Notes: generated by a model from the letters alone, not told the origin. DNA of 64,000 nt from a virus (IMGVR_UViG_3300044858_003284); one strand, 5' to 3'; counted from the stretch's first letter, positions 15,997-45,354 are shown. Made by a program: numbers and translations.

Positions 15997-16983
15997 ATGA
16001 TAAAAAAAATAGAATCAAATCTTTCGGAAGAACGCAATTATTTCAAACCTTTTAATTATCCATGGGCATATGAAGCTTGGTTGAAACATGAGCAATCTCA
16101 TTGGTTACACACCGAAGTTCCTATGGCTGAAGATGTAAAAGATTGGAAGAAAAAATTAAGTAAAGAAGAAAAAACATTTTTAACTCAAATATTCCGTTTC
16201 TTTACACAAGGTGATATTGATGTGGCTGGTGGATATGTTAAGAATTATCTGCCATACTTTCCACAACCAGAAATTCGTATGATGCTAACAGGATTCGCTG
16301 CCAGAGAGGCGTTACACATTGCAGCTTACTCACACCTCATTGAAACACTAGGTCTACCTGAAACCACATACAATGAGTTCCTAGAGTATGAAGCGATGCG
16401 TGAGAAACATGATTACATTATGGACATCTCTAGTAAGAATACCACAAGAGAGAATACTGCCACACATATTGCTGTGTTCTCCGCCTTTACTGAAGGTATG
16501 CAATTGTTTAGTTCGTTCATCATGTTATTAAACTTTGCTCGTCATGGTAAAATGAAAGGTATGGGACAAATTATTACTTGGTCGATTGTTGATGAAACTC
16601 AACACGCAGAATCCATGATTAAATTATTCAGAACATACATAGAAGAAAATCGTGAGATTTGGAATGATGAACTCAAAGGAAAAATCTACACGGTTGCTGA
16701 GAGAATGGTTCAACTAGAAGATAAGTTTATTGACCTAGCATTTGGTGTAAATCAAATGGAAGGACTCTCAGCAGAAGATGTTAAGAAGTATATTCGTTAT
16801 ATTGCAGACCGCCGATTGATTTCATTAGGACTCAAAGGTGTGTTTAAAGTGAAAAAGAATCCTCTACCATGGGTAGAAGAAATGATTAACGCACCAACAC
16901 ATACTAATTTCTTTGAAAATCGTGCTACTGACTATGCAAAAGGAGCTTTGTCTGGAAATTGGGGAGATGTTTGGGCTCATTAA
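15997..16983 (+). CDS. nrdB: Ribonucleotide reductase class I beta subunit
   Basis: REALHIAAYS, VDETQH, NFFE..ATDY. Confidence 0.95.
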   Translation: MIKKIESNLSEERNYFKPFNYPWAYEAWLKHEQSHWLHTEVPMAEDVKDWKKKLSKEEKTFLTQIFRFFTQGDIDVAGGYVKNYLPYFPQPEIRMMLTGFAAREALHIAAYSHLIETLGLPETTYNEFLEYEAMREKHDYIMDISSKNTTRENTATHIAVFSAFTEGMQLFSSFIMLLNFARHGKMKGMGQIITWSIVDETQHAESMIKLFRTYIEENREIWNDELKGKIYTVAERMVQLEDKFIDLAFGVNQMEGLSAEDVKKYIRYIADRRLISLGLKGVFKVKKNPLPWVEEMINAPTHTNFFENRATDYAKGALSGNWGDVWAH

Positions 16984-19864: not shown

Positions 19865-19917
19865 TGTTGTTCCAATACAACACATCTATTGACTTATTCT
19901 CTTTTCCGTGATACAAT
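19865..19917 (+). promoter_or_regulatory. Early promoter with upstream palindromic box
   Basis: TGTTG-N8-CAACA, 6 nt, TTGACT-17-TACAAT. Confidence 0.75.
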
Positions 19918-19943
19918 GGTTCTTCTACAATGGAGAATTGTTT

Positions 19944-20288
19944 ATGATGATCTACGGATATATTCCAAAATCCAAAAAACGTAAAGTTTCAAAGTTAGTT
20001 CAACAGCGTAATGCAGAATGGTTGGCTTCTATCGAAGCAATATCACCAAAACGTAATATTACCACTTCCATCAAAAAATCAATCACAGATTATTCTCCAA
20101 AGATTCCTCCTGGCCGTGAAACTCCCCGTTATGCGTCCTCAGATACAGGTTTTGTGCCTTGCACGAAAAAACTTCCATTTTCTTATACAGGTGACAAAAT
20201 GAAAGGTGTGGCAACAATGCACAAGTCAAATGCCGTGCCGGTTTTCACGGATATAGAAGCAAAAGAAATTTCTAGCATGCGGAGATAG
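19944..20288 (+). CDS. Conserved basic hypothetical protein
   Basis: YTGDKMKGVATMHKSNAVPVF; GGAGA RBS. Confidence 0.65.
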   Translation: MMIYGYIPKSKKRKVSKLVQQRNAEWLASIEAISPKRNITTSIKKSITDYSPKIPPGRETPRYASSDTGFVPCTKKLPFSYTGDKMKGVATMHKSNAVPVFTDIEAKEISSMRR

Positions 20289-20777
20289 TCAAAAATGAAT
20301 CCAAAAGGTTGGAATAATGAAGATTGGGACGATTATGAGGAATATTTGCAAAATTTGTCTGCCAAGGAGCTAGAAATTGAGTTAAAATTGCTTAAATCGC
20401 TCGGAGAAGCGAAAAAAGAAGGCAAAATTATCGTTCCGAATGAAACTTTTTATAAAATGTGAGGTAAATATGTTAACACAATGGGAAGAAACGCAAATTT
20501 ATCGTGGAATTGACGAAATTATGCATAATCTGCGTCATATACCAGCTGATGATGTCGCTCATTTTCTGGTAAAATTCAATCCGAAGCTTGCCGAAGAGCT
20601 GGCAACTGCAATTGAGCAACGAATTTTCGATAAAATAGAAGGAAAAAGACATGAATGAGATTCCTCAAAATATTTGGATGTCAGCGATTGCAGAAGATGA
20701 AGAAATTCCTGCGTGGAAACGCTTGGATATCGTAACTCGCAAGTGGGCTGTTTTGTCTGGAATGGAAAAAGACTTAA

Positions 20778-20984
20778 ATGACTATCAAAAACGCAAAGAA
20801 TATTACCAATAAGAGATATTCAACAAAAATTGTTGATGCAAACGATGGTACGGGTGATGGTATTCTAATTCTTCCTGAAGAAATTGTGAAATACAATCAT
20901 TGGAAAGAAGGACAGGCCATTGAAATGGAATATAGAGAAGGAAAACTCTACCTAAAAGCCTTACCGGAACAGAGTGTTGCTTAA
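20778..20984 (+). CDS. AbrB/MazE-like DNA-binding protein
   Basis: GDGILILPEEI..WKEGQAIEM..GKLYL. Confidence 0.6.
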   Translation: MTIKNAKNITNKRYSTKIVDANDGTGDGILILPEEIVKYNHWKEGQAIEMEYREGKLYLKALPEQSVA

Positions 20985-21037
20985 AAACAACAGTATGAAA
21001 GTTACCGCTTGACGGTAGATGATTTTTATGAGATAAT
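20975..21037 (+). promoter_or_regulatory. Early promoter with upstream palindromic box
   Basis: TGTTG-N8-CAACA, 16 nt, TTGACG-17-GATAAT. Confidence 0.75.
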
Positions 21038-21060
21038 ACTATTATTAACTCGGAGAATCT

Positions 21061-23169
21061 ATGGAACTAATTCAATCTAAATCACTACTTGCCAAACTAA
21101 TGGCAAATGAAAATCTTACTATCGAACAGCGTAACACTAACACTGCTGCATTTGATGTAAAGAATCGTATTCTTACGGTTCCTGTCCTTGACAAAAATAT
21201 CTCAGGTTATCTCTATGACCTTTTTCTAGGTCATGAAGTTGGTCATGCACTCTATACTCCGTTAGATGGTATGATGAAAGCACACGAAGAAAAAATACCA
21301 ATGGGTATTATGAATGTGTTAGAAGATTCTCGTATTGAACGTAAAATCAAAAACAAATATCCTGGCATTCGTACCTCTTTTGTTCGTGGTTATCGTGAGT
21401 TGATTGAAAAAGATTTCTTTGGTACCAACGGTGTCGATTTGAATGATATGAATTTTATTGACCGTGTAAATCTCTACACCAAAGGCGGTGCAGCACAAGG
21501 TATTAAATTCAATGATGAAGAACGTGGTTTAGTTAATGAGATTGAATCTACTGAAACATATGATGATGTAATCCAGTTAGCATACAAAATAATGGCGTAT
21601 ATGAAAAAAGAAAAAGAAGAACGCCAAGTAACTATTCCTGAATTCGAAGAAGATCCAGATGGTGATTTTTCGGCCGATGGTTATGAAGATTCGGATGAGT
21701 TTGATGATGAAACAATTGAAAAGTTTGGTCAACCAAATTCAAACACCGATGAATCGATGGAAGAAATTGATGATGGTCGTAAACAAGATTTACGTGGCCA
21801 CGAAGGTGGTGATGAATCTGGTTTAGATTCTCAAACAGATAAATCGTATCGTCAGAATGAAAGCAAACTATTTGAATCAAGTAACAGGCATTTCTATTAT
21901 GGTAATATCAACGATATCGATTTGAAGAAAGCCGTTGTACCATACAAACAATTGTGGACTGAATACAAAAACGATTTGGCCAAATACAGTATTTCTGGTA
22001 TCGATACAAATGAATTCTTAAAAATTCGTAATGATGCTAAAAAAGTTGTAAGTTATTTGGCTAAAGAATTCGAGTTGCGTAAGAATGCCGACCAACAAAA
22101 ACGTGCATCGATTGCCAAAACTGGTGAACTGAATCTCAACAAAGTTTATGCTTATAAATTCACCGAAGATATTTTCAAACGCATGACTGTGTTACCAGAA
22201 GGCAAATCACATGGTCTCGTAATGTTCCTTGATTGGTCTGGTTCTATGTCTGACCACATGGAAAACACCATGAAGCAATTAATCAATCTGGTCATGTTCT
22301 GTAAGAAAGTAAATATTCCTTACGAAGTATATGCTTTTACTTCTGAACATTCTGATAAGTATAATGTTGAATTCAAAGAAGGTGATTTAGATTTACATGG
22401 TTTCAAACTAATGAATTTGTTATCAAGTAAAATGTCCGCTTCTGAATTCACATACGCTTGTTCTGCTTTGGTGTGTTCTGCTAAACCTAGAGCAATGCGA
22501 CCACACTGGATGCAACTCGGTGGTACTCCATTGTATGAGAGTGTAATTGCTGCCATGAAGATTATTCCAGAATTTCAGAAGAATTACAAATTACAAATTG
22601 TAAACACCGTGTTTCTTACCGATGGCGAAGGCAATCCTGTAAGAAATATTATGTTCTCACATACAAATAGTGATGGCAAAGAACAACGTTTATCTGGTTA
22701 CAACAATGCAGATTTGGATTTCGGTAATTCATATGGTAGAGATAAAGTTTTCGTGATTCGTGATCCAATTACTAAACACGAAGAAAAAGTTTACAATGGT
22801 TATGGTAATGAGTTGATGAGTGCTTATATCAAAATGTTGAAAGTAAGAACACAATGTAATATCATTGGTTTCTATGTGTTATCTGGCCGTGAGTTTGGTC
22901 GTGTTGCACATAACTTTTATCCAAGATCATCAGATCATGCCAAACTAAAAGCAGAGTTTCGTAAAGAGAAATATAAGATTGTGACCAATGCTGGTTTCGA
23001 TGAATATTATCTCTTACGATCAGAAGGCCTAGATACGGATGATGATACTGAATTCGTTGTAAAAGAAAATGCAACCACTCGTGGTCTTGTATCCGCTTTT
23101 ACAAAGTATGCAGGTAATCGTTTATCAAACCGTGTTGTATTAAATCGATTTATTGGACTTATTGCATGA
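21061..23169 (+). CDS. Metallopeptidase-like plus VWA domain protein (CobT-like)
   Basis: HEVGH, NVLEDSRIE, MIDAS DWSGSM, GGTPL, FLTDGE. Confidence 0.85.
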   Translation: MELIQSKSLLAKLMANENLTIEQRNTNTAAFDVKNRILTVPVLDKNISGYLYDLFLGHEVGHALYTPLDGMMKAHEEKIPMGIMNVLEDSRIERKIKNKYPGIRTSFVRGYRELIEKDFFGTNGVDLNDMNFIDRVNLYTKGGAAQGIKFNDEERGLVNEIESTETYDDVIQLAYKIMAYMKKEKEERQVTIPEFEEDPDGDFSADGYEDSDEFDDETIEKFGQPNSNTDESMEEIDDGRKQDLRGHEGGDESGLDSQTDKSYRQNESKLFESSNRHFYYGNINDIDLKKAVVPYKQLWTEYKNDLAKYSISGIDTNEFLKIRNDAKKVVSYLAKEFELRKNADQQKRASIAKTGELNLNKVYAYKFTEDIFKRMTVLPEGKSHGLVMFLDWSGSMSDHMENTMKQLINLVMFCKKVNIPYEVYAFTSEHSDKYNVEFKEGDLDLHGFKLMNLLSSKMSASEFTYACSALVCSAKPRAMRPHWMQLGGTPLYESVIAAMKIIPEFQKNYKLQIVNTVFLTDGEGNPVRNIMFSHTNSDGKEQRLSGYNNADLDFGNSYGRDKVFVIRDPITKHEEKVYNGYGNELMSAYIKMLKVRTQCNIIGFYVLSGREFGRVAHNFYPRSSDHAKLKAEFRKEKYKIVTNAGFDEYYLLRSEGLDTDDDTEFVVKENATTRGLVSAFTKYAGNRLSNRVVLNRFIGLIA

Positions 23170-23811
23170 GCAGAGAGATTGCATCATTCTTGGGTGAAGA
23201 AGGTAACCTAAAAGCTACCGTATATCACGATGAACGCTACGATAAACCTTATGTTGTTGAATACAACATTTGTGATGAATATCATGCAAAACTACATTAT
23301 GAAAATGAGAATGATGCAATCGAAGCTGCCAAGCAATTCACTTTATAAGGATTAAAATGAAACTTTCCACTTTTATGAATGGTGATAAGAAAGCAATTGT
23401 TGAACGTGCTGAATACACTTATTCAATCGTATATTATCTTAATGACAAAGTAATTAAAAAAGAAACAACGAATGATTATCAGCGAGCCGAAGATTTGGCT
23501 GAAGATTATGTTTTGGCTGAAGAAAAGAAAGGTCCTGATTTTTTAGTTGAAAGGTGGAACAATGTCTAATATGATTGCTGAAGATGGATTTGATCCTAAG
23601 AAGATTGCTGATGAAATGATCAAACGGTGCCTTGATGCCAGAGAATGGCACATCCAATGTTATGTGCAAGAAGAATGGTTTATTAATGGCGTTGTTCCGT
23701 TTACGATTTCTATGAAAGATGGTTTATATACGTGCAAAGTGATTGCACCAACCAGACAAGATGCAATTCGTAAAGTAGAAGAATATATGCCTGTAATTAA
23801 AATTGTAGAGA

Positions 23812-24099
23812 ATGATGGAAAATAAAACAAGAGAAACACTTATTATATTACAAGAAGAATGTGCCGAAGTAATTCAAGCCTCATCTAAGATATTTCGTTT
23901 TGGTTTTGATTCATGTTATCCAACCGAAGATTCACCAACAACAAGAGAATGTCTAACGATGGAACTAGGTCAATTACTTTGTATGGTTGCTTTATTGGTT
24001 GACCAGAAGGTAGTTGATGAAAATGAATTAATGAATTACATGGAACTCAAAAAGAAGAAGTTAGAAAAATGGTCGAGTATTTTCAAAGATGCATCCTGA
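23812..24099 (+). CDS. MazG-like NTP pyrophosphohydrolase
   Basis: ILQEECAEVIQA.SK..RFG; ELGQL. Confidence 0.7.
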   Translation: MMENKTRETLIILQEECAEVIQASSKIFRFGFDSCYPTEDSPTTRECLTMELGQLLCMVALLVDQKVVDENELMNYMELKKKKLEKWSSIFKDAS

Positions 24100-24408
24100 C
24101 GAACTATTGAAATTTCTGAAGCATCTTTTGCCTTGGGCACCTCACGGTTCATATATCAGAAATCAGATACAAAATATGATTAATCAGATAAAGGCAAGCA
24201 GGCAATAACATATATAGAGGTATGTTAGAATATCTCCGTTTATCTCTCTTTATTATTGCCATTACGATGGCCTATGCCTATACGTCTAATGATGATTACC
24301 ACAAAAGATTTGACAAAATGATTGAAATACAGTATAATTGTAGTAAGTTGAGCTATGATGCTCCAATAGATGTGGTAACTATGTGTAACGATGGAAGGAG
24401 ATTTGTAA

Positions 24409-24669
24409 TTGTTAAAGCCTATCAAGAATAATGTAATTGTTGAGTTGATCGAAAAAGAAAAGGTTACCAGCTCTGGTATTGTCCTTTCATCGGCCGATCC
24501 AGCAGAAGCCAATCGTGCTAAAGTAGTTTTCCTTGGACCTGATGTAGAAACTGTTCAGAAAGGTGACTTTGTATTACCTAACTGGAATTCAGCCCGCAAG
24601 ACAAAATATGATGGTACAGACTATTATATTGTAAGTGAAGAAGAAATTGTTTTAATTTTTGGAGATTAA
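24409..24669 (+). CDS. groES: Co-chaperonin GroES-like
   Basis: LKPIKNNVIV, TSSGIVL, VVFLGP, EEEIVLI. Confidence 0.85.
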   Translation: MLKPIKNNVIVELIEKEKVTSSGIVLSSADPAEANRAKVVFLGPDVETVQKGDFVLPNWNSARKTKYDGTDYYIVSEEEIVLIFGD

Positions 24670-25116
24670 TATGCCATTTGATATTACTAATGAAGAATAT
24701 ATTGCCGTTTTAGAAACTGAAAAAGAAACACTTCTACGACACTATTACAAACCTCAATCTGAAGGTACAGGACATTTTAATACGGCTGCTTCCGTATTAC
24801 AACACCGTATTGATGAGATTCGTAAAGAAATGGGTTCAACACTACAATAGGAGAATGGTATGACCACGTTTACAACTGACGATAGAAAATCAGCCTATGA
24901 TCCAGGTTTAGGTTGTGTAACACCATCTTCTGCCAATGGCATGGAAGAACCAGACCTTGTTGCAGAAGCACCTTATCATCCAGGTTATGAAGATGCGGTC
25001 ATTGAAAGTAAACGATTAACTATTCTATCAAAAGAATTTGATGAGTTACTTAAAGTGAAAGATCGTCATGTTACCACCTCGGCTAAGATTATTGAGTTTC
25101 TGAAAGGTGGTCAGAA

Positions 25117-25293
25117 ATGGGATCGTTAGTCCAACTTGATTTATTTCCAGACAATGAACAACTCTCTTTTAACTTTGAACAAACCATGCAAAAATTAGGA
25201 CCGTCTTTTACAGTTACCACAAATAATCTTACCGCTGCCACCGAAGAAGAGGCAATAACCATTTCTAATGAATATGTGAAAGAAACAACATGA
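25117..25293 (+). CDS. 58-aa protein with QLDLF motif (not in ORF track)
   Basis: MGSLVQLDLFPDNEQLSFNF..; AAAGGTGG RBS. Confidence 0.6.
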   Translation: MGSLVQLDLFPDNEQLSFNFEQTMQKLGPSFTVTTNNLTAATEEEAITISNEYVKETT

Positions 25294-27094
25294 TTACATT
25301 TTTAGGCATTATTGGCTTTATCATCACCGTGTTAGTGGCCATACCAGCAACACTCATCGCTTTCGCAACACTCATTGAGCATCCGATCCGTACCGTGATT
25401 ACTCTCTGGATGACTCTCATCGAGACCTACAAGGACCTCTGGCGTAACCTCACTCAATAACGAAACGCAGCTGCGAAACGTAACATTATATCATGGCAAA
25501 ACTCCTAATACCATCTCTCTTAATCCTCTGCGTTTCCGCCGCCTCCGGCCAAGAAGCGCCTTCCGCATCCGAGATCGCAAAAGATTCTAAAGGTAAAGAA
25601 ATTCTTCTCCAATGTCGGCCTCAGAAGCCGCTGAGCCATACTTGGATTTGCACCGACCAGAATGGTAAAATAATTTCCAATTTACTCATTAAAGAGAGGG
25701 ACGCTAAATGAGGCTTCTACACATCTTCCAGTTCTGGACTTATCCGTCCCTCTGGCTCACTACTCGATTCTGGTATTGGAAAGAAACCACACCTAAAGGT
25801 TATCTTCTTCTGACTATCTGTGGTATCGCAATGGTCTTTGACCGAGCAGATAGGTTTATATGAACGGCCGCCAATGGAAAGACGGAGAGACCGCTGCTCA
25901 CTTTCTCTATTACGATGAAACTGGCCGAATCGTTGGTGAAGTGAACCGTGCTGGACATCAGATTAATACGAAACATACCACCACCGTTTATCCTAATGCC
26001 AGTCAAACACTTTCATTAGGCATGTATATTAATTCTGATACCGCTAAGGCAGCCGTAGAGAAATTCTGGTTAATACAAGAAAGGACTTTAATTGAACATG
26101 AATAACGAAATGAAAGAATTATTAAAGAAACACAATATTGGATATAACCAACAAACCATTCATATTTCAGGTACCAGAATGGTTGAATTCTGTACCGATA
26201 TCTCAGGTAAATGGGTACCAATCCAGGATGTGATGCAGCTGGTAGAGAGAATCAATGAACTAGAGAAACAACTCCATGGGAGTAGATAATGAAAGTAATA
26301 CTACAAGAAGTACCAGAAATATCAGGATCCACCTATCGGTTAATTGCTGAGACCGAACCTGGTCTTGGTGGCTATACCACTCTGACCTTCTCTAGTATAT
26401 GGACTGGTGCCAAGAAACCAGACGAACCACACATTAAGTACCGAGTCCACCTCACAGATGAAGCAAAGAAACACCTTAAAGAAATACTATGAAAATTCTA
26501 TTATTATGCCTCTCTGTGATCCTTACTGGATGCTCTACGATTGCACAATATCCAGTCACAGCGGCTTCAATGACTATATGGGGAACCACAGGTAAGACTA
26601 CAGGTGACCATGTGCTTTCTTTTGTAACTGGTAAAGACTGCGTAACTCTCCGTATTTTTTCACAATATGAAAACGAGTATATCTGCGAAGAAGTGGTAGA
26701 AGAAAAAATCTATGAGATACGAGGACTGGATAAAGTCTTGGCAAAAAAGTAGGATCCTCTGGGGCCACCTGGAAAAAAATTTAGGAATTCGAAAATCCTG
26801 AAAAAATAGCCGAGAAAAAAAGTTACTGAATATCCAATCCGACCACCAGCAAAACTTTTTTAGCACTGCTATTCTGCGCTGAATAGCCTGTATTACTCCC
26901 CGAGCCGTGCCCCGTATACGATTCGGAGCAGCCTCTCAGAGCACCGCACCGTTCCGACTCAATCCCCACACGGACTCCACAGGGGCTCCCGTACCAAAAT
27001 CCACGAAAAATCTCGGTGGCCACCAATACCTGACCAATCCGGTCAAGAATTATCCTCAATGGCCTCAATGGCTTACGGCATGCAAAAATACCAT

Positions 27095-27122
27095 TTGACA
27101 AGCCCGCCAATACCTGTATAAT
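27095..27122 (+). promoter_or_regulatory. Strong sigma70 promoter
   Basis: TTGACA-16-TATAAT. Confidence 0.8.
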
Positions 27123-27155
27123 AATCTCATTAACTCAGAAAAGAAAGGTATTAAA

Positions 27156-27431
27156 ATGTTTTCATATATTGACACCATCCAGAATTTAACCGTTGCAGAA
27201 AAACGCAATTTGGTCAAATCCATTAAGCTCATGATTAAAGAGCATATTGCTGCTAACCGTGATGCAAATTTCCAGCGTAAGCAGAATTCCGCTTTATTGC
27301 GTGCTCAGAAAAAAGCTGACCGCATCGCCGCTCTTGAAGCAAAGCTCGAAGCGCTTCGCAATCCAGTCGGTGCCAAAGCTATCAAGGCTAACAAAAAGCC
27401 TTCCAAAGTGGTAGTTACCAAAACGGCGTAA
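27156..27431 (+). CDS. Basic coiled-coil early protein
   Basis: AAAGGT RBS after a strong promoter; hairpin at about 27456-27479 follows. Confidence 0.7.
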   Translation: MFSYIDTIQNLTVAEKRNLVKSIKLMIKEHIAANRDANFQRKQNSALLRAQKKADRIAALEAKLEALRNPVGAKAIKANKKPSKVVVTKTA

Positions 27432-27855
27432 GCTGCTGTTTTTAGTGATTTTATAGTGGCGCTTCTCAGTAGGCGCCATTAGTAAGATTATTAGGATATT
27501 ATGTTAGAGCAAATTAAATTATTACCACTTAACGATAAAAAAACACTATTGGCCATGCTTCAATCGGACATAGGGTTGACCGTCAAGGTGGATATAGTAG
27601 TAGAAAAACCAAGTATTTTTACATTGGAGTCCAGGCGCTGTAATGATATAGCCTTAGTAAAGCGCCATGGCCGCTCAGTAATTTACACGGAATTAAATGA
27701 GATACTCTGAAATGCTTAGGAGCTTTTCTCTAGGATACTCAGGAAGTGGTAGGAAATGTGCGGAGAATCGTGGAAACAAACTAAGAGCCGCAAAGAGCAC
27801 CTATATGGCGACTGGTATAGCGACTATATTACGGAAAGTAATAAAGAGGCCTCTA

Positions 27856-27916
27856 TGTTGTTTTTATACAACGGATGTTCGATTTTTATTGACATCCACC
27901 GCCATTCTGGTATAAT
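27856..27916 (+). promoter_or_regulatory. Early promoter with upstream palindromic box
   Basis: TGTTG-N8-CAACG, 15 nt, TTGACA-16-TATAAT. Confidence 0.8.
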
Positions 27917-27946
27917 GGTATTTTGAATTGATTGGAAATTTTTATT

Positions 27947-28720
27947 ATGAAATTATTATCTACTGGTAATCCTAAGGTTTTGAAAGGATTGGCACAAGGT
28001 TACAATACTTACATATTGCACCTTGCTCCCTCTACCTTATCTGGCCATAATACCTGTCCTAAGGCTACTGCAGGTTGCATTGCTTCTTGCCTTAATACGG
28101 CAGGTCGTGGTGGTATGTTTAAGCGTGGTGAGACCACTAATACTATTCAGCAGGCTCGTATCCGTAAAACCAAATTATTCTATGAGTTCCGTTCGGAGTT
28201 TATGTCTATGTTGGTTGCTGATATTGAGCTCGGTATTAAACAATCGAAGCGGTTAGGTTTAATTCCCGTATTCAGATTAAATGGTACCTCGGATCTCTCA
28301 TGGGAAAAATATGAGGTTGTGCGTAATGGTGAAGTTTTCACTAACATATTTGCAGCATTTCCTGATATCCAATTCTATGACTATACCAAGGTTATTGGTC
28401 GTAAGGTATCAGGTATCAAAAATTACCATTTAACCTTTTCTATGGCGGATGGTAATTATATGGATTGCAAGCGTGCCGTGGTTGAAGGTTTGAATATTGC
28501 TGTGGTATTCGGTATCAAGAAAGGTACTGCAATGCCTAAGAAATTCTTCAACCATAATCTATCCGTATTTAATGGTGATGATAGCGATTTACGCTTTCTT
28601 GATCCAAAAGGTTGTGTGGTTGGTCTATATGCCAAAGGCAAGGCCAAAAAGGACACCAGCGGTTTCGTAAAATATCCTGTTGGTGATTATAAGTTTACTA
28701 TGAAATTGGAGGCAGCATGA
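27947..28720 (+). CDS. Gp88-like protein with Cys cluster
   Basis: CPKATAGCIASCL, RLNGTSD, FYDYTK, GDDSDLRFLD. Confidence 0.7.
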   Translation: MKLLSTGNPKVLKGLAQGYNTYILHLAPSTLSGHNTCPKATAGCIASCLNTAGRGGMFKRGETTNTIQQARIRKTKLFYEFRSEFMSMLVADIELGIKQSKRLGLIPVFRLNGTSDLSWEKYEVVRNGEVFTNIFAAFPDIQFYDYTKVIGRKVSGIKNYHLTFSMADGNYMDCKRAVVEGLNIAVVFGIKKGTAMPKKFFNHNLSVFNGDDSDLRFLDPKGCVVGLYAKGKAKKDTSGFVKYPVGDYKFTMKLEAA

Positions 28721-29607
28721 GCGGTATGAAAGCATTTCTGGATGAAGTCCAGGTATTATTGGAGTGTGGTTACAATGCCGACCAAATCTCCCAAGCATTA
28801 GGTTGTTCCTTGGAAATGGCAGAGCAGGCAGTAGAGTATTGGACGGACTTTGCGGAGTAATTATGTTATTATCGTATAAGTTGGATTTATATGTGTTTTT
28901 ATTTGGTTTATTATTAATGGTGGTGGTACTATGAATGTGTATATTGTAAAATCTGGCCAGTTGGTTGATTTTGCTGGTTGGGAATGGTTGAACCTACGAG
29001 CTTTTGCTGACTATGACAAAGCCGTGGCATTTATGCAATTGGTTCAAAATCAGATACCACGAAAGAACCTTGGGAATACCGAGGATGTAGAAATTGAAGA
29101 ATTAACGCTGGAGTAAAATTATGACTGAAAAACAATTGGTATTGGCAGCGATCCGTGAGTTCCACTTCAAAGGTCGTACCAATGAGCAGATAGCCAAGGT
29201 ATTGCATATGCCATTGGATCAAGTAATTGAAGAGGTTAAATTTATTGTATTTTCACCTGGTTATATTGGGAGGTAATATGTTTGGTGGTAAATTGTTAGT
29301 AGGTACTCGTAAAATGATTCAAGGCACCCATCGGATGCATGCGTATCAGGATACATGGGAAGATTCTGTGGATATTCAATTCGATGGTGAATTGACACCA
29401 GCCGTATGCTTGGCCATCTGTGAGGCATGGAAGAATTCTGGTCGCCTTGGTGAGAACCAAAGTGGTTATGGCAAACTCCGATGGGGTAATGCTGATACCA
29501 TACTTGGTGTGGATGTGGCAAAGCGCCAATTACGCCTTGGTTGCTCGGTTAATCTGTGTGATTAATCCACAATAGTTGACCGATTTGGTCGACTATTATA
29601 CAGGGTA

Positions 29608-29636
29608 TTGACATTTATACCAGTTTCCTGTATAAT
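29608..29636 (+). promoter_or_regulatory. Consensus sigma70 promoter
   Basis: TTGACA-17-TATAAT. Confidence 0.85.
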
Positions 29637-29863
29637 GGTTTTTTAATGTGGAGAAATGTATGACATTTTATGTATGTGATGGTTTACTTTTTGATTCGTA
29701 TCAAATGGCGGTGAATTATGCCAATGAGCAATTTCGTAAGTTTGATATTGCTTTGAATATTGAGCGGGTAATCAAGGTATGATGCTCGCAATCAATGTAG
29801 GTATTTTGTTGTATATGGTAGCAGCAGGTTATTTAATTTATTATGTGATTAAGGAGTATTGAT

Positions 29864-30397
29864 ATGCCAAACTGGTGTAATAATAATATAGAATTGTCCC
29901 ATCCTGATAAGGCGATGGTAGAGCGTGCCGCTAAAGCGTTTGCTGACGGTACATTATTGAATGAGTTTATTCCATTACCAAAAGAATTGGAAGACACCAC
30001 GGCACCTGCTCGGCAGTCCGATGAAGCCTTGGTCGCCAAATACGGCCATTCTGATTGGTATTCGTGGTGCATCGCTAATTGGGGTACCAAGTGGGATATC
30101 TCGCCATATGGTGTAGAAATCAATGAGTTTGGTACTTTGGTCGGTGCCTTTGATTCACCATGGGGTCCTCCAATCGAAGCATATTCAAAGCTTGAGGAGT
30201 TAGGTTTTGAGGTTCGTGCATATTACTGTGAACCAGGCATGGGTTTTGCTGGAATGTATGAAGGATTTGATGAGTGCTATGATTATTCTGGCATGAATGC
30301 TGATGAAGCGGAAGAATACATTCCTGAGACCTTAAACGAAATGTATGGCATCACCGAATCAATGCGTGAATGGGAAGAGGAGAATTCTGATGAGTAA
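29864..30397 (+). CDS. Api92/YubB ferredoxin-like (DUF1281-related) protein
   Basis: MPNWCNN, WCIANWGTKWD, FDSPWGPP, YCEPG. Confidence 0.75.
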   Translation: MPNWCNNNIELSHPDKAMVERAAKAFADGTLLNEFIPLPKELEDTTAPARQSDEALVAKYGHSDWYSWCIANWGTKWDISPYGVEINEFGTLVGAFDSPWGPPIEAYSKLEELGFEVRAYYCEPGMGFAGMYEGFDECYDYSGMNADEAEEYIPETLNEMYGITESMREWEEENSDE

Positions 30398-30885
30398 AGA
30401 ATTTGAAAGCAAAGTCACTCTTGTGTTTGAAGGTAACAGTATTGAAGCCGATTCTAAAGAAGAATACCTTGAAAAGCTCAAGGAACTATTCTACGATGAA
30501 TTTAACATTGAATTGAGAGATTCTGAAATTACTGAAATTATGGAGGTTGTATGAGTAGAAAATTTGAAATGATTGAGGTATTGATTGATAATGATATCGA
30601 TACCATTGTGGCCGATGCAGTTTGTAATGATATGTCATTATTGGCACAAATGCTACACTCTGGCTTCAAAGGTTATGAAAACTACACCGAAGAAGAATTG
30701 GTTCAAGAAATGAACGAGCGTGGCCTTTGGAATGAATGGTTTAAGGAAACTGTATGAGTAGATGGGAATTCACAATCAAAGAATTAAAGGCACTACAGCA
30801 GGAAACGCCAGATACACCATTAATCGTTGAGGCGTATGTAGAATGGGTTCTATTAAAAGGTTATTCCATCAAGAAAACCAAATAG

Positions 30886-30936
30886 TGTTGTATTTTTACG
30901 ACAGGGGCTTGAAAATCCCTGTGGTAAGAGTATAAT
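30886..30936 (+). promoter_or_regulatory. Early promoter with upstream palindromic box
   Basis: TGTTG-N8-CGACA, 5 nt, TTGAAA-16-TATAAT. Confidence 0.75.
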
Positions 30937-31861
30937 GGTACAATTAATTGAGTGAAGGATATATTATGTTGAAATTTGAAGGTATTGCAAAAGTTGGTGA
31001 TGTGATTCGTGCATACGATTTTGCACCATGTGCTGGTCGTGATGATGCATTTATTGAAGGTGTGGTAGAGCAGGCTAATTGTAATGAACCTGGTTTTAAT
31101 TGCTATAAGGTTACGGTGACTGCTGACAAATTTGTTAAGTTTGAAACCAAACCTAATAAAAAGAATCGTGTTGGTAAAATTATGTTTGTGCCACACCAGA
31201 CCAGTTTTATGGAATTTGATTTTCGTGTGATTAATTTGAGTAGAGGTTAATATGGATTTATACGAAGGCATTGATGCATATATTAAACACTTGGCGGATG
31301 ATTACGGCACCAACGTTTACAATAATAAGAAGTTTTATGCTGCTGTTGGTCGTAAGTATGTGCATATCATCATGGAAGATAACCAACGCAGTTCACATTC
31401 GTGGGTGATGTTGGCAGATGATAAGAAGTTTAAGCAAGGTGACATTCTTAAATCAGCATCATGGAATGCACCAGCAAGAAACTTTGCTCGTGGTAATGTA
31501 TTGTGTGGTGGTTTTAAACATATTAGATGGTGTGGAGCGTAATTATGAAATTAAATTATAATGAAAAAGAAGCGGTGATGCAGGCAATATTTGGCAATCA
31601 CAAATCACCTGCTGGCTTTCGGTCAACCTACAAAGGTGTGCCAATTGGTAACTATGAAATGGTAAAACAATTTATTGATTTTACCAAATATTTTGTAATG
31701 TTCCGTGGTCCTCGTAGGCGTGGTGCCAGTTCCACTCGGAAATGTGATGCTCATTCATTTGATGTGTATCAGCGTGATATGACATCGGTTCGTGAGATTC
31801 GTATTGAGCATGAAGCATTTCAGCGTGGCGTTAGGTGGGCTAATAATCGTAGCCATTAATT

Positions 31862-32030
31862 GGAAATCGCATAAGGTGTAACTAGTTTAAGCCGATATGC
31901 GTGGTGATGTGTGGGAAAATCACATTGCTTGGTCTTACTGGAGGAATATCCGTGGCAGACCTTAAAGAGCCAAAACAGCGGCTGATAGTTTGTTGGTTTC
32001 AACTGAGATAATGTAAACCAAACCCTATTT
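31862..32030 (+). ncRNA. Candidate structured RNA of unknown class
   Basis: Intergenic gap of about 195 nt tiled by five stem-loops. Confidence 0.5.
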
Positions 32031-33497
32031 TGTTATTTTATTGATTGGAGTTTGTATGGGTACCAGAAGTTTAACATTCGTTTATAATGAATCGAAGAGC
32101 GGTGAGGCCGCAGAGCGTATTATCAATATGTACCGCCAATACGATGGTTATCCAACAGGCCATGGTGCCGAGTTGGCAGAGTTTCTATCGAGTGGCAGTA
32201 TGACCAATGGACTACGCCTTGGTACAAATGAAAGATTCTTCAACGGTATGGGTTGTTTGGCTGCACAGATGGTAGCAAACTTCAAAGATGGTGCAGGTCA
32301 ATTCTATTTGCATCCTGTTGTTCAGCAATCATGTGGCCAAGATTATGAGTATCACATTTTCAATATTGATGGCGTGATGTTAATTGATGTATATTATTGT
32401 GGTTGCAATCTGTTTGGTATGAGCAGTGATTATGAGAGTGAAGTTATATTTTCAGGTTCATTACCTGAATTTGTGGAATTCTGTAAAGAAAAGGAAACAG
32501 CATGAAGAAGAAAACGATTCAAGAATTATTTCCTGGTATCATGGTACTAGATAAAGAGCCAGTTGAGGTGCAAAACCCTTTTAGTGGTGAAAGCACAGTT
32601 CTAACACCTGATGAGGTTGCGGTTTATGATTACCTCAAAGGTTGTGAATTGATGGGTGATTACAAAGGCGTGCGTAAAGGCCTTGATTGGTTTCGTAGCA
32701 ACAATGCTTCGGCATATATGGTTTTGTTAGATTAACATTATGGAGTTATAATGAGTTTCGAATATCAAGTATACATGGTTGAAACAGTTGAAGGTAACCA
32801 ATATCACATTGGCGCTGAAGATTTGGAAGATTGTAAGCAACAATTTTTTAAATATCATGGTGATGAAAATATTTACATCATCTATCAAAATGTATATGAA
32901 GCTTTGGCTCAGGAGGAAGAATGAGAAAAGTTAGTCCCGCCTTTGGTACGAAAGGCTTTATAATTCGTGTTGGTGATTGCCATATGTTTCGTGTATATGA
33001 TGAAAACCACGAATTCATAGACTATGATATTACTCACCATGATTTGCAAGTTCAAATAATTGAAGAAGATTCATGTTTTTATTCTAGTGAATTTGGCAAT
33101 TATTTGGATTATAAACCAATTGATGAAAGTAAATAATGCCAGTAAGATATAGTACCAATTGGATGGGCGTGGCCAATCTACAATGGTATAGAGACCGTGG
33201 ACTCACCGAAAGAGTGAGCAGAACATTAACCGAAGATTCGGAATTAACTAACCGAAAAGCTGGTGATGTATTTGAATATGATAATATTACACAAGAATAT
33301 TCCTGTGGCCGTATTGACTGCCGTGGTGAAGATTTAGGTCCGTTTGGTGATGAAATTGGTGTACCGCCAATGAAGGCAGAAGATTGGCACCGATTTGGTA
33401 AATGGTTGAGTACCTTTGAAACTGATTTTATGTGGTCATTGGAAGAATTGGTTGAATTGTATGAAAGAAATAATCCTAAAATTGAATGGTGGGTAGA

Positions 33498-33902
33498 ATG
33501 AGTATCTCAGCATATAAAGAAGTTACCGAATGGAATGAATCGGAGTTTATTGTGCCGAATCATACTTATCTTTTTGATGGTAAGTCCAACATATTGGCCT
33601 ATGCTCGTGAGAGTGATGGCGAGGTAATGGTATTCAAGAAACCATTACCAATGGATACTCGTAGGCGTAAGTTCATCAAGGTCAAACATAAAGAATTGGA
33701 CGCTATAGGTGCAACGGTGGTGGTTCAGCAACCAGAGGCTCTGAATGTGCCTCATTGGCAGGTTAAGAGTGATTCTGGCAAGACCTATACAGTCACCTTA
33801 GAATCTGGTAAGTACCAATGTAATTGTGTTGGGTATTCTTATCGTGGTAAATGTAAGCATTCCGAAAGTGTTGCTAAAAAACAACAGTCGATTGACATTT
33901 GA
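33498..33902 (+). CDS. SWIM zinc-finger protein
   Basis: GKTYTV..CNC....RGKCKH. Confidence 0.75.
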   Translation: MSISAYKEVTEWNESEFIVPNHTYLFDGKSNILAYARESDGEVMVFKKPLPMDTRRRKFIKVKHKELDAIGATVVVQQPEALNVPHWQVKSDSGKTYTVTLESGKYQCNCVGYSYRGKCKHSESVAKKQQSIDI

Positions 33903-33919
33903 TGTGGTTTTGTTATAAT
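33869..33919 (+). promoter_or_regulatory. Promoter with upstream palindromic box, driving tRNA-Tyr and the AAA gene
   Basis: TGTTG-N8-CAACA, 5 nt, TTGACA-16-TATAAT. Confidence 0.8.
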
Positions 33920-33932
33920 GGTAGATTAAATT

Positions 33933-34018
33933 GGGTAAGCCGTAGAGTTGGAGAGCTACAGCGGACTGTAAATCCGTTGCCTCAGGCTGAGTTGGTTCGA
34001 ATCCATCCTTACCCACCA
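33933..34018 (+). tRNA. tRNA-Tyr(GUA)
   Basis: Acceptor GGGTAAG/CTTACCC, anticodon arm GCGGA-CTGTAAA-TCCGT, long variable arm, GGTTCGAATCC, encoded CCA. Confidence 0.95.
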
Positions 34019-34047
34019 GTATTTTATTATGTTTAATTGGAGAATGT

Positions 34048-35196
34048 ATGAATAAAAATGCAAAAGCTTTTGTAACAGCAGCAGAATCGATTTTTGGTGT
34101 TGAACCAATTATCAATCGTGATGACATTACAAGAGTATGTAATGAATCAGGTGCACCATATCCGTATTGGTTGGTGACCAAGGCACAATATCGCCATGAC
34201 CGAGGCCAATACAAAGTACCTGCATCAGGTGAAGCTGTTGTAAAACAAACACAGCAAGAACCTGAAGCCGAAATGGCTTATGCACAAGTTTTAGAGTTCC
34301 GCCAACCAAAACTGGTTGATGAGAATGAACCATCGGTGCCACAAAAATGGCCTGACTATGTGCCATTTGGTTTCTATAAAGATTTACGAAACATTGTATC
34401 AAGCAAAGCATTCTATCCAATTTTCGTTACTGGTTTATCTGGCAACGGCAAGACCTTGATGGTTGAGCAAGTGTGTGCCGAATTACAGCGTGAATGTATT
34501 CGTGTAAACATTTCAGTAGAAACAGATGAAACTGATTTGCTTGGTGGTCCTACATTGGTCAATGGTAATGTGGTCAATCGTGATGGTCCTGTTATCACCG
34601 CTATGAAGCGTGGCGCAGTATTGTTGATTGACGAAGTTGACCGTGGTTCAAACAAACTAATGTGCTTGCAAGGCATTATGGAAGGCAAACCACATTACAA
34701 TAAAAAATCAGGTGAGATGGTGTATCCAAAATCTGGATTTACTATCATCGCTACTGCCAATACCAAAGGTCGTGGTTCAGATGAAGGCAAGTATCTATCA
34801 CAAATTCTTGATGATGCTTTCTTAGAACGATTCCCTATTACGGTAGAACAGGAATATCCTGATGCCAAAACTGAGAAGAAAATTCTATCACCATTGATTG
34901 ATGATAAAGAATTTGTGGATCATTTGGTACAATGGGCGGATGTGGTACGCAAATCGTATGACGAAGGTGCTACTGATGAGATTATTTCCACTCGCCGATT
35001 GGTACATATTGCAAAAGCTTTTACCATTTTCAAAGACCGCATGAAAGCCATTACCTTGTGTGTGAATCGCTTTGATGAAGAAACGAAAATGGCATTTCTA
35101 GATTTGTATTCGAAGGTTGATAGTTCGGTAGAATCGCCTGCCAATACAAGTACCATTTCTACCACATCTGAGGTTGCCAACCAACCACAGGTATGA
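34048..35196 (+). CDS. MoxR/CobS-like AAA+ ATPase
   Basis: GLSGNGKT, LLIDEVD, ATANT.G, AFLERF, STRRL. Confidence 0.9.
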   Translation: MNKNAKAFVTAAESIFGVEPIINRDDITRVCNESGAPYPYWLVTKAQYRHDRGQYKVPASGEAVVKQTQQEPEAEMAYAQVLEFRQPKLVDENEPSVPQKWPDYVPFGFYKDLRNIVSSKAFYPIFVTGLSGNGKTLMVEQVCAELQRECIRVNISVETDETDLLGGPTLVNGNVVNRDGPVITAMKRGAVLLIDEVDRGSNKLMCLQGIMEGKPHYNKKSGEMVYPKSGFTIIATANTKGRGSDEGKYLSQILDDAFLERFPITVEQEYPDAKTEKKILSPLIDDKEFVDHLVQWADVVRKSYDEGATDEIISTRRLVHIAKAFTIFKDRMKAITLCVNRFDEETKMAFLDLYSKVDSSVESPANTSTISTTSEVANQPQV

Positions 35197-35296
35197 TAAA
35201 ATGGTGTTGATTGTATCGTATTGTTCACATGAACCTAGGTTATTGTGTATAATATGATACATTATTTTATTATGTTTAATTTGAAGGAGTATCACA

Positions 35297-35623
35297 ATGG
35301 CATTAACAGTTCGCAAAGGTAAGGTAAACCGTCATGAGAAAATTACCCAAGTATTATTGTCTGGCAAACCTGTAAGTCCTGCTGAAATCGAGGCAGTATT
35401 CAAAGGCACCACGCAAGAAAAAGTATTGTATCGCCTCTCTACCAACATCTATAACATTCGTAAAGATGGTGGTATTGTTAAGGTAATCAAAGATGGCCGT
35501 AAAGTAAAGGCATATCAATTGGTTAACTTTGATCAGTTCGATGCAAATGGTCGTTTCAAAGGTGCTGTTGCTAAGGCACAACCTAAAGTAGCTGCGGTTC
35601 AATCAGAATCAGTTGCTGCTTAA
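35297..35623 (+). CDS. Probable winged-helix DNA-binding protein
   Basis: LLSGKPVSPAEI..RLSTNIYNIRKDG..YQL pattern; own promoter (TATAAT near 35248). Confidence 0.55.
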   Translation: MALTVRKGKVNRHEKITQVLLSGKPVSPAEIEAVFKGTTQEKVLYRLSTNIYNIRKDGGIVKVIKDGRKVKAYQLVNFDQFDANGRFKGAVAKAQPKVAAVQSESVAA

Positions 35624-35697
35624 TATCTCTGCCATCATATAGTTTTTTAGACTCGTTGTGAAACGCTCGGGCTATATGATTGGCACCCTTTTATATT

Positions 35698-37524
35698 ATG
35701 GAGAATACTATGACACTTGATAAAGAAGAAATGTTTGAGTATCTTGATGTGTTGCGTGAAACTGGCGTAACCAATATGTTTGGTGCTGCACCATACTTAC
35801 AACAAGCTTTTGGTATCAATAAGAATGAAGCAAAAACAATTTTACTTGATTGGATGAAAAACTATGCCGTCAGATAGGTTTGATTTTGAACAACAAATAC
35901 TAAAATGTTGGAATGTCATTGAAGATTTGAAAGAAATCAATGAAGAATTGAATTCTGAACAAATTGGGGCCATTACAATATTGTATGAAATCAAATTTCA
36001 AAAGCTTTGGGAACAATTTGAAAATGTGATGATGCATCTTGTTCGTGAAAACAAAATGTTAAACGAAGAATGTGCCGCAATGCGTGGCCAATTGGCAAAA
36101 AAAGAAAAAGGTAAGAAATGAAATATATTGCAAAACCAAATTTATGTAATAATGTAGGTAAAAAAGAGTTCAACAATCCTGTTGATGCTTTGACCTATTT
36201 AAACGGCGTCCTTGCGCCTAAGGACGGTGACCATCAGGACTATGTGTTCGTGGCACCATCGACCTCCAAGCGCAACCTAAAGAAGTCCATTGAAGAATAT
36301 GTGGGTATTGGTAAGTTGGAGTTGGTACCAGAATAGTGTTGTGTCCATACAACAGTCGCTTGTGTTATTCTGTGGTTGTGATATAATGGTACCTATAAAG
36401 TGAGAGAGGAATTATATGATTAACTTTGTATTAGGTTGTATTTTGGGCTTTGTTGTTGCTACTGTAGGCTTTACAGGTATTGCTCAGGCATTAGATACTG
36501 GCATCGATAAAGTAAAATCAATCAATGTTGAGGTGGCCAAATGAAGTATAAACGATATCCATCACAAACACCATTGAATGTAAACAATTTAAAAACTGTG
36601 GTGGTTGCCATGCACTTAAATTATTTACATACTATTCAATTGGACATGATTGATGAAGCTGTTGAGAAGTCCGATTTGAGTGAAGCGAAAGATGTTATTA
36701 GTTATATTATGGAGAAATCTAAATGAAAAAAGTTGTATTGGTAGTTATTGCTAGTGTTGGTATTGTTGGTTGTTCTTCAACACCATCATACAAACTAAAA
36801 GGTTATTCTGGTCCAGAAGCCATGGAACGCAACGAGGTTGTGCAGGCATCTAAACAATGTATCTACGCTAAACTGCGTCCTAATGTCGAATTCGTGACCG
36901 CCAAAACTAACAGCGGTAAAGTTATGGTGCCAGTTAATGTTCATTGTCAGCCTTACTAATTGATTGATATATTATGACTATATTTGAAACTCTTAATTCA
37001 TTTGGTATTACACCAATTCACCTACAGTTAGGCCTCTTGGCTCTTGCTGCAGTGTTTTTGGTTGCAGTATATTGGAAATTAATTGTGATTGGTGTAGGCA
37101 TGATTTTTTGTGTGGTTGTATTTGCTATGCCACATAAACTTGATTTGAGTAACCAATCAAATGAACCAATACTTAACAAAGTACCACCACCGCCTGCTGA
37201 ATACATAAAAGATTGTATTCGTTACACTGGCCATACCGCAGATGATTGCAGAAAGTTATGGTATGCAGAGCGTGGTGAAGGTGAAGAATTGAAGGAACTA
37301 TAATGAATGATTCTGAATTAGAATTATTATCAAAAGATATTGATGAATCACTGGTGAGGTGGGTTGCTACATACAAAACCTCACCATTGAATATTTGTGG
37401 TGTAATGTTGGCAAGATTATTGTGGTTATCTAAACTATCAGATAGCCAAGAAGATTTTATTAAATTATTGGAAGCTCCAAAAGAAGTGTTTGAGAAAGAA
37501 AAAGAAAATAGACAGGTACATTAA
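35698..37524 (+). other. Small hypothetical genes, including a lipoprotein (36723..36959) and a membrane protein (36974..37303)
   Basis: Coupled ORFs; lipobox IVGC; TM segments. Confidence 0.6.
36337..36387 (+). promoter_or_regulatory. Early promoter with upstream palindromic box
   Basis: TGTTG-N8-CAACA, 5 nt, TTGTGT-16-TATAAT with extended TG. Confidence 0.75.
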
Positions 37525-45050: not shown

Positions 45051-45354
45051 AGTGGTAAACTTGTAGCTTTCTGGTTGCCTATATAAGTATAAACACTTAT
45101 AATAGGAACACTATGCAAAACAAATATTGGAAAAAACTCTGCACTCCCGAGCAGAATCGGCAACAAATGGGAGCTCTCAAAGTATTGGCTGGGGGTTTAA
45201 GTTTTCTTTTTATTATTTGGTTGTTAGAAAGGATTCTGTAATGCCTAGCAAAGATTGTGTTAAAGAATATAAAGTAAGAAGTTTTGCTTTCTACATGGGT
45301 GCTTGTGCATTTGCTGTAGGTGTATTGGCAATACTTTTTGCATTAACTTAATTC

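Follow-up and report, generated by a model that had tools for sequence, protein, structure and literature searches.

The early region of the uncultured T4-like virus IMGVR_UViG_3300044858_003284 raises the question of what recognizes a short inverted repeat, TGTTG-N8-CAACA, that recurs upstream of its early promoters, and with what effect on transcription. The window analysed here is a stretch of 64,000 nt of this DNA, given as one strand, and all coordinates are counted from its first letter. We favour, with modest confidence, the answer that the repeat, hereafter called the box, is in its fuller form TGTTGY-N6-RCAACA the predicted site of a dimeric, most probably host-encoded protein, and that it marks one class of sigma70-type early promoters. 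A conserved upstream box of this kind would offer a handle on how T4-like phages without MotA and AsiA, which include cyanophage-like and many environmental phages, sort host-type promoters into classes.

The box and its promoters in the window

The exact 18-bp box is found at five positions in the window (16587, 19865, 20975, 33869, and 36337), compared to 0.15 copies expected from shuffled sequences, and none of 100 shuffles reached five. Two further copies, at 27856 (ending in CAACG) and 30886 (CGACA), carry one mismatch. An earlier sequence-only reading of this DNA had described six promoter-linked sites, and all six are present, four of them exact and the other two being the one-mismatch copies; it had overlooked the exact copy at 16587. 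This last copy (16587-16604) is of the TGTTGA...TCAACA type, with A/T instead of Y/R beside the half-sites, and lies in the open reading frame (ORF) of a ribonucleotide reductase small subunit identified by Pfam. Because it has no promoter, falls within this gene, and recurs as coding sequence in the relatives G003 and G004, it can be regarded as a coding coincidence.

The gaps between the six promoter-linked boxes and the -35 hexamers are, in order, 6, 16, 15, 5, 5, and 5 nt, and the promoter spacers are 17, 17, 16, 16, 16, and 16 bp, which reproduces the distances and the four 16-bp spacers given in the sequence-only reading. Box 1 (19865-19882), exact and reading TGTTGT-N6-ACAACA, lies 6 nt before the -35 of promoter 1 (19889-19917, plus strand, TTGACT-17-TACAAT), which is predicted to drive the gene of a 113-amino-acid phrog_27048 protein and four small ORFs. 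Box 2 (20975-20992) is also exact and stands 16 nt before the -35 of promoter 2 (21009-21037, plus strand, TTGACG-17-GATAAT), predicted to drive a gene for a 702-amino-acid protein at 21061-23169. Box 3 (27856-27873), with its CAACG mismatch, is 15 nt from the -35 of promoter 3 (27889-27916, plus strand, TTGACA-16-TATAAT followed by GGTA), the predicted promoter of a GP88-family gene (27932-28720). Box 4 (30886-30903), mismatched as CGACA here and exact in the relatives L001 and L040, lies 5 nt before the -35 of promoter 4 (30909-30936, plus strand, TTGAAA-16-TATAAT, then GGTA), from which small ORFs starting at 30948 are predicted to be transcribed. The exact box 5 (33869-33886) is likewise 5 nt from the -35 of promoter 5 (33892-33919, plus strand, TTGACA-16-TATAAT, then GGTA), predicted to drive tRNA-Tyr (33933-34018) and a CobS-type AAA ATPase gene (34048-35196). 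Box 6 (36337-36354), exact, precedes by 5 nt the weak -35 (TTGTGT) of promoter 6 (36360-36387, plus strand, TTGTGT-16-TATAAT, then GGTA), predicted to drive small ORFs from 36416. The overlap with coding ends that had been remarked upon was also found: box 2 includes the stop codon of the ORF at 20778-20984, and box 5 is located within the final codons of the ORF at 33486-33902.

All six promoters are of the near-consensus sigma70 type and are also conserved in relatives. Since boxless promoters of equal strength are present in the same window (24310, 27095, 29608, 41332, and 48510), the box marks only a subset of promoters. The spacer inside the box is A/T at 5-8 of its 8 positions in the window; the relatives also have spacers containing G+C, such as CTTCGGCA and TATGGACA, so that the 8-nt length described earlier holds as fixed, whereas the A/T richness described with it is a tendency and no rule.

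Conservation and spacing among relatives

The conservation of the box was followed in 80 IMG/VR loci around the CobS gene (73-98% protein identity, 500 kb), which contain 120 exact boxes, nearly all with a promoter downstream. In complete relatives, 13 boxes are found in G004, seven in G010, six in G003, and two in G005, clustered in the early region. The spacing was counted in 1.1 Mb of relatives, where the N8 arrangement has 115 distinct copies, compared to 2-18 for the other spacings between N2 and N15 and 1-49 for everted and direct-repeat control arrangements. A motif scan with positional statistics bears out the coupling to promoters that had been claimed from the window: 88 of the 225 box contexts in relatives, counted by orientation, precede a promoter with at most two mismatches, compared to 3.4% of random positions. 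For 83 of these 88 promoter-linked boxes the gap to the -35 is 5-7 or 15-16 nt, and none has a gap of 8-14 nt. The ten half-site positions match the -35 and -10 hexamers in information content, while the box spacer and the gap to the -35 are near zero. Moreover, the combination of a box, a 16-bp promoter spacer, and GG(TA) after the -10 is seen in 62 cases, and the same promoter features without a box in 12.

The two gap classes differ in further respects. In the long-gap class, a GCAAATAAT stretch is maintained between box and -35, and in the short-gap class the promoter-proximal half-site is the better conserved of the two; the ordinary boxless promoters of these phages have an A-tract at the place of the proximal UP (upstream promoter) element. 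Variant boxes have single uncompensated changes (CGTTGT..ACAACA, TGATGT..ACAACA, and ..CAACG), some of which occur in several loci. The gap and spacer sequences vary and their lengths are kept, indicating selection on geometry rather than mere inheritance of a common cassette. In two loci (L046:1937-1976 and L189:12441-12479), a single promoter is preceded by a box duplicated in tandem, with a distance of 21-22 bp, or two helical turns, between the copies.

Many of the ORFs between the boxes of the window are missing from relatives. At box 5, homology junctions with relatives fall at 33860-33869; three loci (L002, L006, and L009) have an extra gene inserted with its junction at 33860-33865, and another (L004) has an insertion with a box on either side. 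Homology ends lie inside the cassettes at 1.8 times expectation (35 compared to 19.7), and the distant relatives L076 and L064 have different hairpins at the equivalent place. Box 1 has an orthologue ahead of the same gene in G003, G004, and G005, making the phrog_27048 promoter the sole one whose box is kept across all four genomes compared. The real start of this gene is near 19944. Its 113-amino-acid product (19944-20288, plus strand) has orthologues in the same three relatives and a conserved C-terminal motif, YTGDK.KG..TMHKSNAVPVF.

Double-stranded DNA site or RNA stem-loop

Inverted repeats beside early promoters are known from T4-like phages as promoter-early stem-loops (PeSLs), each being a stem-loop by a sigma70-type early promoter, repeated in the hyperplastic early regions and located at gene-swap junctions (Arbiol et al. 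2010, PMC2839356; Comeau et al. 2014, PMC4122927). The published stems are stable, often polyG/polyC, occupy five positions relative to the promoter, and terminate transcription (PMC2839356, PMC4122927). The element studied here resembles them in combining an inverted repeat with a strong sigma70-like early promoter inside the repeated unit, in its many copies between small ORFs of a hyperplastic early region, close to variable small ORFs and indels (in the window, G003, G004, and G010), in its lineage-typical stem consensus, and in its swap junctions. It differs in lacking a stable stem-loop beside the promoter and in having weak 5-bp arms, a strict 8-bp spacer, an invariant sequence, and a position that is always upstream of the -35 in the window lineage; unlike PeSLs, it is also common to unrelated phages and to host porin promoters. 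A hairpin of the classical PeSL type is present in the window as well, with an 11-bp stem at 29570-29600 (plus strand) directly upstream of the boxless perfect-consensus promoter at 29608.

As RNA, the boxes give stems of 5-7 pairs with energies of -2.4 to -5.6 kcal/mol and no T tail, in contrast to the -16 kcal/mol of the 11-bp hairpin at 29570-29600. A terminator scan of the window called no box, and with the weak stem and the missing T run the reading as an intrinsic terminator or hairpin was rejected. The behaviour of a target for a symmetric, sequence-specific binder of double-stranded DNA appears to fit the box better than that of a terminator, because the spacer length is fixed, the half-sites are informative, the variants are uncompensated, the hairpin is weak, and lengths are kept while sequences differ. 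As in the operators of dimeric proteins, inverted half-sites stand at a fixed distance with a free spacer between them, and it is the sequence rather than the pairing that is conserved. The dimeric factor that the sequence-only reading had postulated is thus supported by the fixed N8, the invariant half-sites, the free spacer, the uncompensated mismatches, and the weak hairpin. The element could be described as a new PeSL variant whose 'stem-loop' part would behave as a protein site, since its stem is weak and does not vary in sequence, its loop always has the same length, and it has a set position before the -35. Since the box belongs to a widespread PeSL-type cassette (PMC2839356, PMC4122927) and is also a chromosomal motif of Betaproteobacteria, it does not define a regulon particular to this phage.

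Distribution among other phages

A pattern scan of IMG/VR, defined as the box, a gap of 4-17 nt, TTGAC, 17-19 nt, and TATAAT, matches at least 120 contigs. A gp23 gene was found in every contig of this set that was tested, including ones of 280 and 345 kb. The box is not confined to this lineage. The cultured Burkholderia phage BCSR5 (MW460245; 227 kb, 54.7% G+C), which was reached by short-query BLAST, has 14 exact boxes, compared to none of the reversed control. This phage and G004 have in common only homologues of sheath, tube, clamp-loader, helicase, dCMP (deoxycytidine monophosphate) deaminase, and lysozyme proteins, and no early or regulatory protein common to BCSR5 and the T4-like lineage was found by BLASTP, phmmer, or a winged-helix hidden Markov model. 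Conversely, T4 and the cyanophage S-SSM4 have one copy each, of an atypical kind, and the pelagiphage HTVC008M has none, which is the level of chance. The distribution of the box therefore does not track T4-like ancestry, and it appears to follow the host group.

The arrangement in BCSR5 is in part different from that in the window. Several of its promoters (L232-L243) are flanked by two boxes 75-96 bp apart, one upstream and one located 22-30 nt past the -10, a layout that is not seen in the window; examples of its box positions are 35157/35253, 64722/64797, 80347, 84188, and 92420. DNA looping between paired boxes was considered, as four BCSR5 pairs are near whole turns, and rejected, since the periodicity over 24 pairs is not significant (R 0.27-0.31 for a 10.5-bp period).

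The box in betaproteobacterial chromosomes

Among ten betaproteobacterial genomes reached via a 16S probe, phage-type boxes are present in the small A+T-rich genomes of Methylophilaceae and Nitrosomonadaceae. Across 41 Methylophilaceae genomes, TGTTGY-N6-RCAACA occurs 154 times, compared to 19 for the control (about 8-fold), and a strict form with an all-A/T spacer gives 34 copies compared to one in 121 genomes across the order. The chromosomal boxes are intergenic, and a comparison of two OM43 genomes shows them conserved at orthologous positions.

The genes beside them are mainly those of the outer membrane, namely PorB-like trimeric porins (six loci), OmpA-like proteins, phosphate-selective porins, TonB-dependent receptors, MlaA, and a PorV-like protein. 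There is also a family of signal-peptide proteins that has no Pfam match and is weakly similar to PorB; the Methylophilaceae porin family at the box loci is without a Pfam match. Boxes of the form TGTTGY-(A/T)6-RCAACA were found ahead of major porin genes in diverse Betaproteobacteria (L392-L396, L398, L400, and L364/L367/L376/L378/L384), with an identical 18-mer in several genomes. The flanks of the boxes include trpC, a dGTPase-like gene (dgt), a photolyase gene, and a carbonic anhydrase gene; because these are ordinary chromosomal genes, the loci are not prophages.

Two related arrangements were noted. Upstream of the rRNA operons of two OM43 genomes (L290 and L267), about 30 nt from the -35, there is only a variant, TGTTA-N8-TAACA (in L290), which is symmetric with both inner bases changed; it may be akin to the box, whether the factor that recognizes it is identical or different. 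A small replicon of Burkholderia lata (G016:C4:22159-22460) has three TGTTGATRCGYATCAACA copies within 300 bp, an arrangement that is partition- or iteron-like and unlike the phage-type box.

Candidate binding proteins

Proteins that are known to define phage promoter classes were searched for in five relatives. MotA and AsiA (PF09114 and PF09010) were not found in them, and the -35 hexamers of the box promoters are intact, so that a MotA/AsiA system was rejected and the box is not a MotA box, as the sequence-only reading had maintained. Similarly, an Ogr/Delta-type activator was considered because the box can be read as TGT-N12-ACA, but the Ogr_Delta domain (PF04606) has no match at E <= 1 in the five relatives, of which three are complete.

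The window itself encodes a candidate binder after cobS, a winged-helix protein of 108 amino acids with a basic tail (35297-35623, plus strand), which is modelled with high confidence by AlphaFold2 (predicted local distance difference test score 88). Its best Foldseek matches are the winged helices of Fur, SmtB, and PadR together with histone H1, at E values of 0.04-0.2, and the Lys/Ala/Pro-rich tail gives it an architecture like that of the linker histone H1. Its own family comprises 111 clusters at 50% identity and is not represented in Pfam, and searches of BCSR5 and of a cultured-phage collection gave no homologue. In relatives without an exact box in the searched loci, it is 67-91% identical and its recognition helix is unchanged. 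As it does not co-vary with the box, is conserved in relatives with few or no boxes, and is absent from BCSR5, it is unlikely to be the binder; we regard it as a DNA-binding protein of a general kind, which may coat the phage DNA or form part of a phage nucleoid.

The ORF that ends in box 2 (20778-20984, plus strand) encodes an AbrB/MazE-like protein of 68 amino acids, for which the Pfam match to MazE_antitoxin (E 0.0016) is below the curated cut-off. With this sub-threshold match and with no homologue in the box-bearing G003, it is also an unlikely binder. No recognizable DNA-binding fold was found in the 113-amino-acid phrog_27048 protein.

A model for the box and its alternatives

In the reading that we prefer, a dimeric and probably host-encoded protein would bind the box beside the polymerase, and would do so at a single class of early promoters, characterized by a 16-bp spacer, a TGn ahead of the -10, and GGTA following TATAAT. 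With gaps of 5-6 or 15-16 nt to the -35 in this lineage, the centre of the box falls near -49 or -59, which would place it in the working zone of the C-terminal domains of the RNA polymerase alpha subunits and of upstream activators. In the short class, the box would take the place of the proximal UP element, and in the long class it is separated from the -35 by a UP-element-like AAATAAT stretch, an arrangement like that of class I activation. The phage promoters would in this way imitate the upstream region of host genes that are strongly expressed, and a host factor could be recruited or sensed by them as soon as infection begins, within its first minute. Box and promoter would travel together and lie at the junctions of swapped early genes, as in PeSL cassettes.

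Taken together, the sequence data suggest a box-binding protein, probably of host origin and more likely an activator than a repressor. A host-encoded binder is the most economical explanation because the site is common to two phage groups without relationship to each other and to host chromosomes, whereas no candidate phage protein is common to them, and activation is the likelier sign because the promoter class copies the upstream element of highly expressed host envelope genes. A fuller version of this model is tentative, and we consider it somewhat less likely than not. It proposes that a DNA-binding protein of Betaproteobacteria controls the genes of the major porins and of other outer-membrane proteins via TGTTGY-N6-RCAACA, and that hundreds of environmental T4-like phages without MotA/AsiA, as well as the unrelated jumbo phage BCSR5, have copied the element onto their early promoters, giving a class that would be immediately active and dependent on the state of the host, with cassettes that would also be gene-shuffling joints.

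Several observations weigh against a host-encoded activator. The core promoters are near consensus and might need no activator, and the candidate binders in the window were examined and none is supported. Among the matches listed in the IMG/VR scan, the gaps have three peaks, at 5-7, 8-11, and 13-17 nt, and the 8-11-nt class is mostly 9-10 nt with 17-bp promoter spacers. Gaps of 5-17 nt across T4-like lineages argue against a single required helical face, so the two classes one helical turn apart that had been described earlier stand for the window lineage (about 10 bp) but not for the other T4-like lineages with their peak at 9-10 nt, and a fixed face of the DNA cannot be upheld as a general rule. 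The flanking layout of BCSR5 is repressor-like or leader-hairpin-like, and would be more typical of repression or of a role at the RNA level. Among the ten genomes reached via the 16S probe, those of Burkholderia, Ralstonia, and Cupriavidus are near the control level for the box, and the lack of enrichment in Burkholderia beside the enrichment in BCSR5 implies either a host factor with few exact sites in this genus or a binder that BCSR5 brings with it. At the porin genes, a distance of about 32-37 nt separates the box from the putative -35, and in some cases another, degenerate copy precedes it. Finally, the permuted type of transfer-messenger RNA (tmRNA) that the window encodes has no above-cut-off match among the 41 Methylophilaceae genomes, and the tmRNA therefore does not indicate Methylophilaceae as the host.

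The same DNA site could instead be bound by a phage-encoded protein, an early product that turns the class on, in a delayed-early or middle mode, or off, the candidates being the 108-amino-acid winged-helix protein, the 68-amino-acid AbrB/MazE-like protein, and the 113-amino-acid phrog_27048 protein. We consider this unlikely. It would fit the lack of enrichment in Burkholderia chromosomes, the confident fold of the winged-helix protein, and the autoregulation-like persistence of the phrog_27048 box even in G005, which has only two boxes; and, as MotA, AsiA, and Ogr/Delta were not found in the complete relatives, these phages need another means of forming promoter classes. However, BCSR5 and the T4-like lineage share no detectable early or DNA-binding protein, the winged-helix protein is conserved in boxless relatives and has a histone-like tail, the AbrB-like gene is missing from G003, and the boxes before host porin genes would be left unexplained.

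A role in RNA, with the box as a PeSL stem-loop that acts as a terminator, attenuator, 3'-end stabilizer, or 5' hairpin and whose likeness is kept by cassette recombination, appears quite improbable, although the layout matches that of published PeSLs, whose stems have a lineage-specific consensus and terminate (PMC2839356, PMC4122927), boxes do lie at gene ends where homology breaks, some BCSR5 boxes are in transcribed 5' leaders, and L076 and L064 carry other hairpins at this place. The stems are weak beside the -16 kcal/mol hairpin of the same window, changes in them are never compensatory and some mid-stem breaks persist, and a loop of free sequence and fixed length is the opposite of what most protein-recognized RNA hairpins show. 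Neither can cassette recombination explain why the stem is identical in host chromosomes and among phages with proteins that are unrelated or only 75% identical. A last alternative is that the box serves mainly recombination or mobility, as a conserved patch or a nuclease or recombinase site, with transcription being secondary. PeSLs do recombine and form mini-circles (PMC2839356), and the insertion junctions of L002, L006, and L009, the L004 insertion between two boxes, and the tandem boxes 21-22 bp apart are in line with such a role. We give it very little credence: homology ends exceed expectation in the cassettes by only 1.8 times, the chromosomal copies at housekeeping outer-membrane genes beside trpC, dgt, and the photolyase gene are no mobile cassettes, and the tight distance to the -35 across free intervening sequence indicates selection on promoter geometry.

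If a host protein is the binder, the link to porins and other outer-membrane proteins predicts a new regulator and regulon in Betaproteobacteria, and it may narrow the host range for a large group of uncultured phages. The 14 boxes in BCSR5 make the hypothesis testable in a cultured phage-host pair.

Relation to known regulatory sites

The sequence-only reading did not recognize the motif, and comparison with regulator motifs has given none that fits both its sequence and its spacing. The motifs of HexR, TyrR, PpsR, FNR, LexA, ParB/parS, Fis, and integron attC were all rejected on these grounds, and literature searches for the motif and for the exact 18-mers returned no paper naming it. Nevertheless, some of the similarities are instructive. 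The T4 MotA box is likewise an extra upstream element that marks a phage promoter class, but it is asymmetric and replaces the -35. An 18-bp dyad with outer TGT/ACA, as in the box, is found in the late promoters of P2 Ogr, P4 Delta, and 186 B (centred near -55), in TyrR sites (TGTAAA-N6-TTTACA), and in those of PpsR/CrtJ. The sites of P2 Ogr and P4 Delta are upstream of the -35 and act through the alpha subunit of RNA polymerase. Unlike the sites of Ogr, TyrR, and PpsR, however, the box has TG/CA as inner bases, and the resemblance comprises only six of the ten specified bases; in addition, P2 late promoters are without a good -35 whereas the box promoters are near consensus, and the regulons of TyrR and PpsR have no connection with porins.

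The class I promoters of CRP and FNR, with sites at positions such as -61.5 and -71.5, offer another comparison. The FNR core TTG-N8-CAA is contained in the box, and the long class, with its centre near -59 and its A/T stretch, is similar in layout; the TTG is flanked by A/T in FNR sites but by Y/R in the box. CRP is not known to activate from a position near -49, which is the centre of the short class. The HexR operator, TTGT-N7-8-ACAA (PMC5489143), has arms like those of the box, but the box has the spacing TTGT-N6-ACAA, and this only when Y is T; moreover, HexR targets are genes of glucose catabolism and not porins.

Other features of the window

The window has a G+C content of 36%, and almost all genes of its early region are on the same strand. 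Megablast of the region against cultured phages gave no match. Its CobS gene shows about 50% identity to its nearest cultured homologues, which are those of T4-like cyanophages and the pelagiphage HTVC008M. The protein gp33 is encoded in the window (Pfam Trans_coact match), and gp59-like and gp32-like proteins can be read from the sequences; the gp23 capsid gene is present in the complete relative G004. Cyanophage homologues of the 702-amino-acid product of 21061-23169 carry the annotation 'peptidase', and from its gene context this protein is a candidate for a CobT-like identity. Besides the CobS-type AAA ATPase, the GP88-family protein, and tRNA-Tyr, the window encodes the permuted, two-piece tmRNA at 45351-45611 (plus strand), which matches the Rfam family tmRNA_permuted with 106 bits (cut-off 47) and specifies the tag ANDESYALAA.

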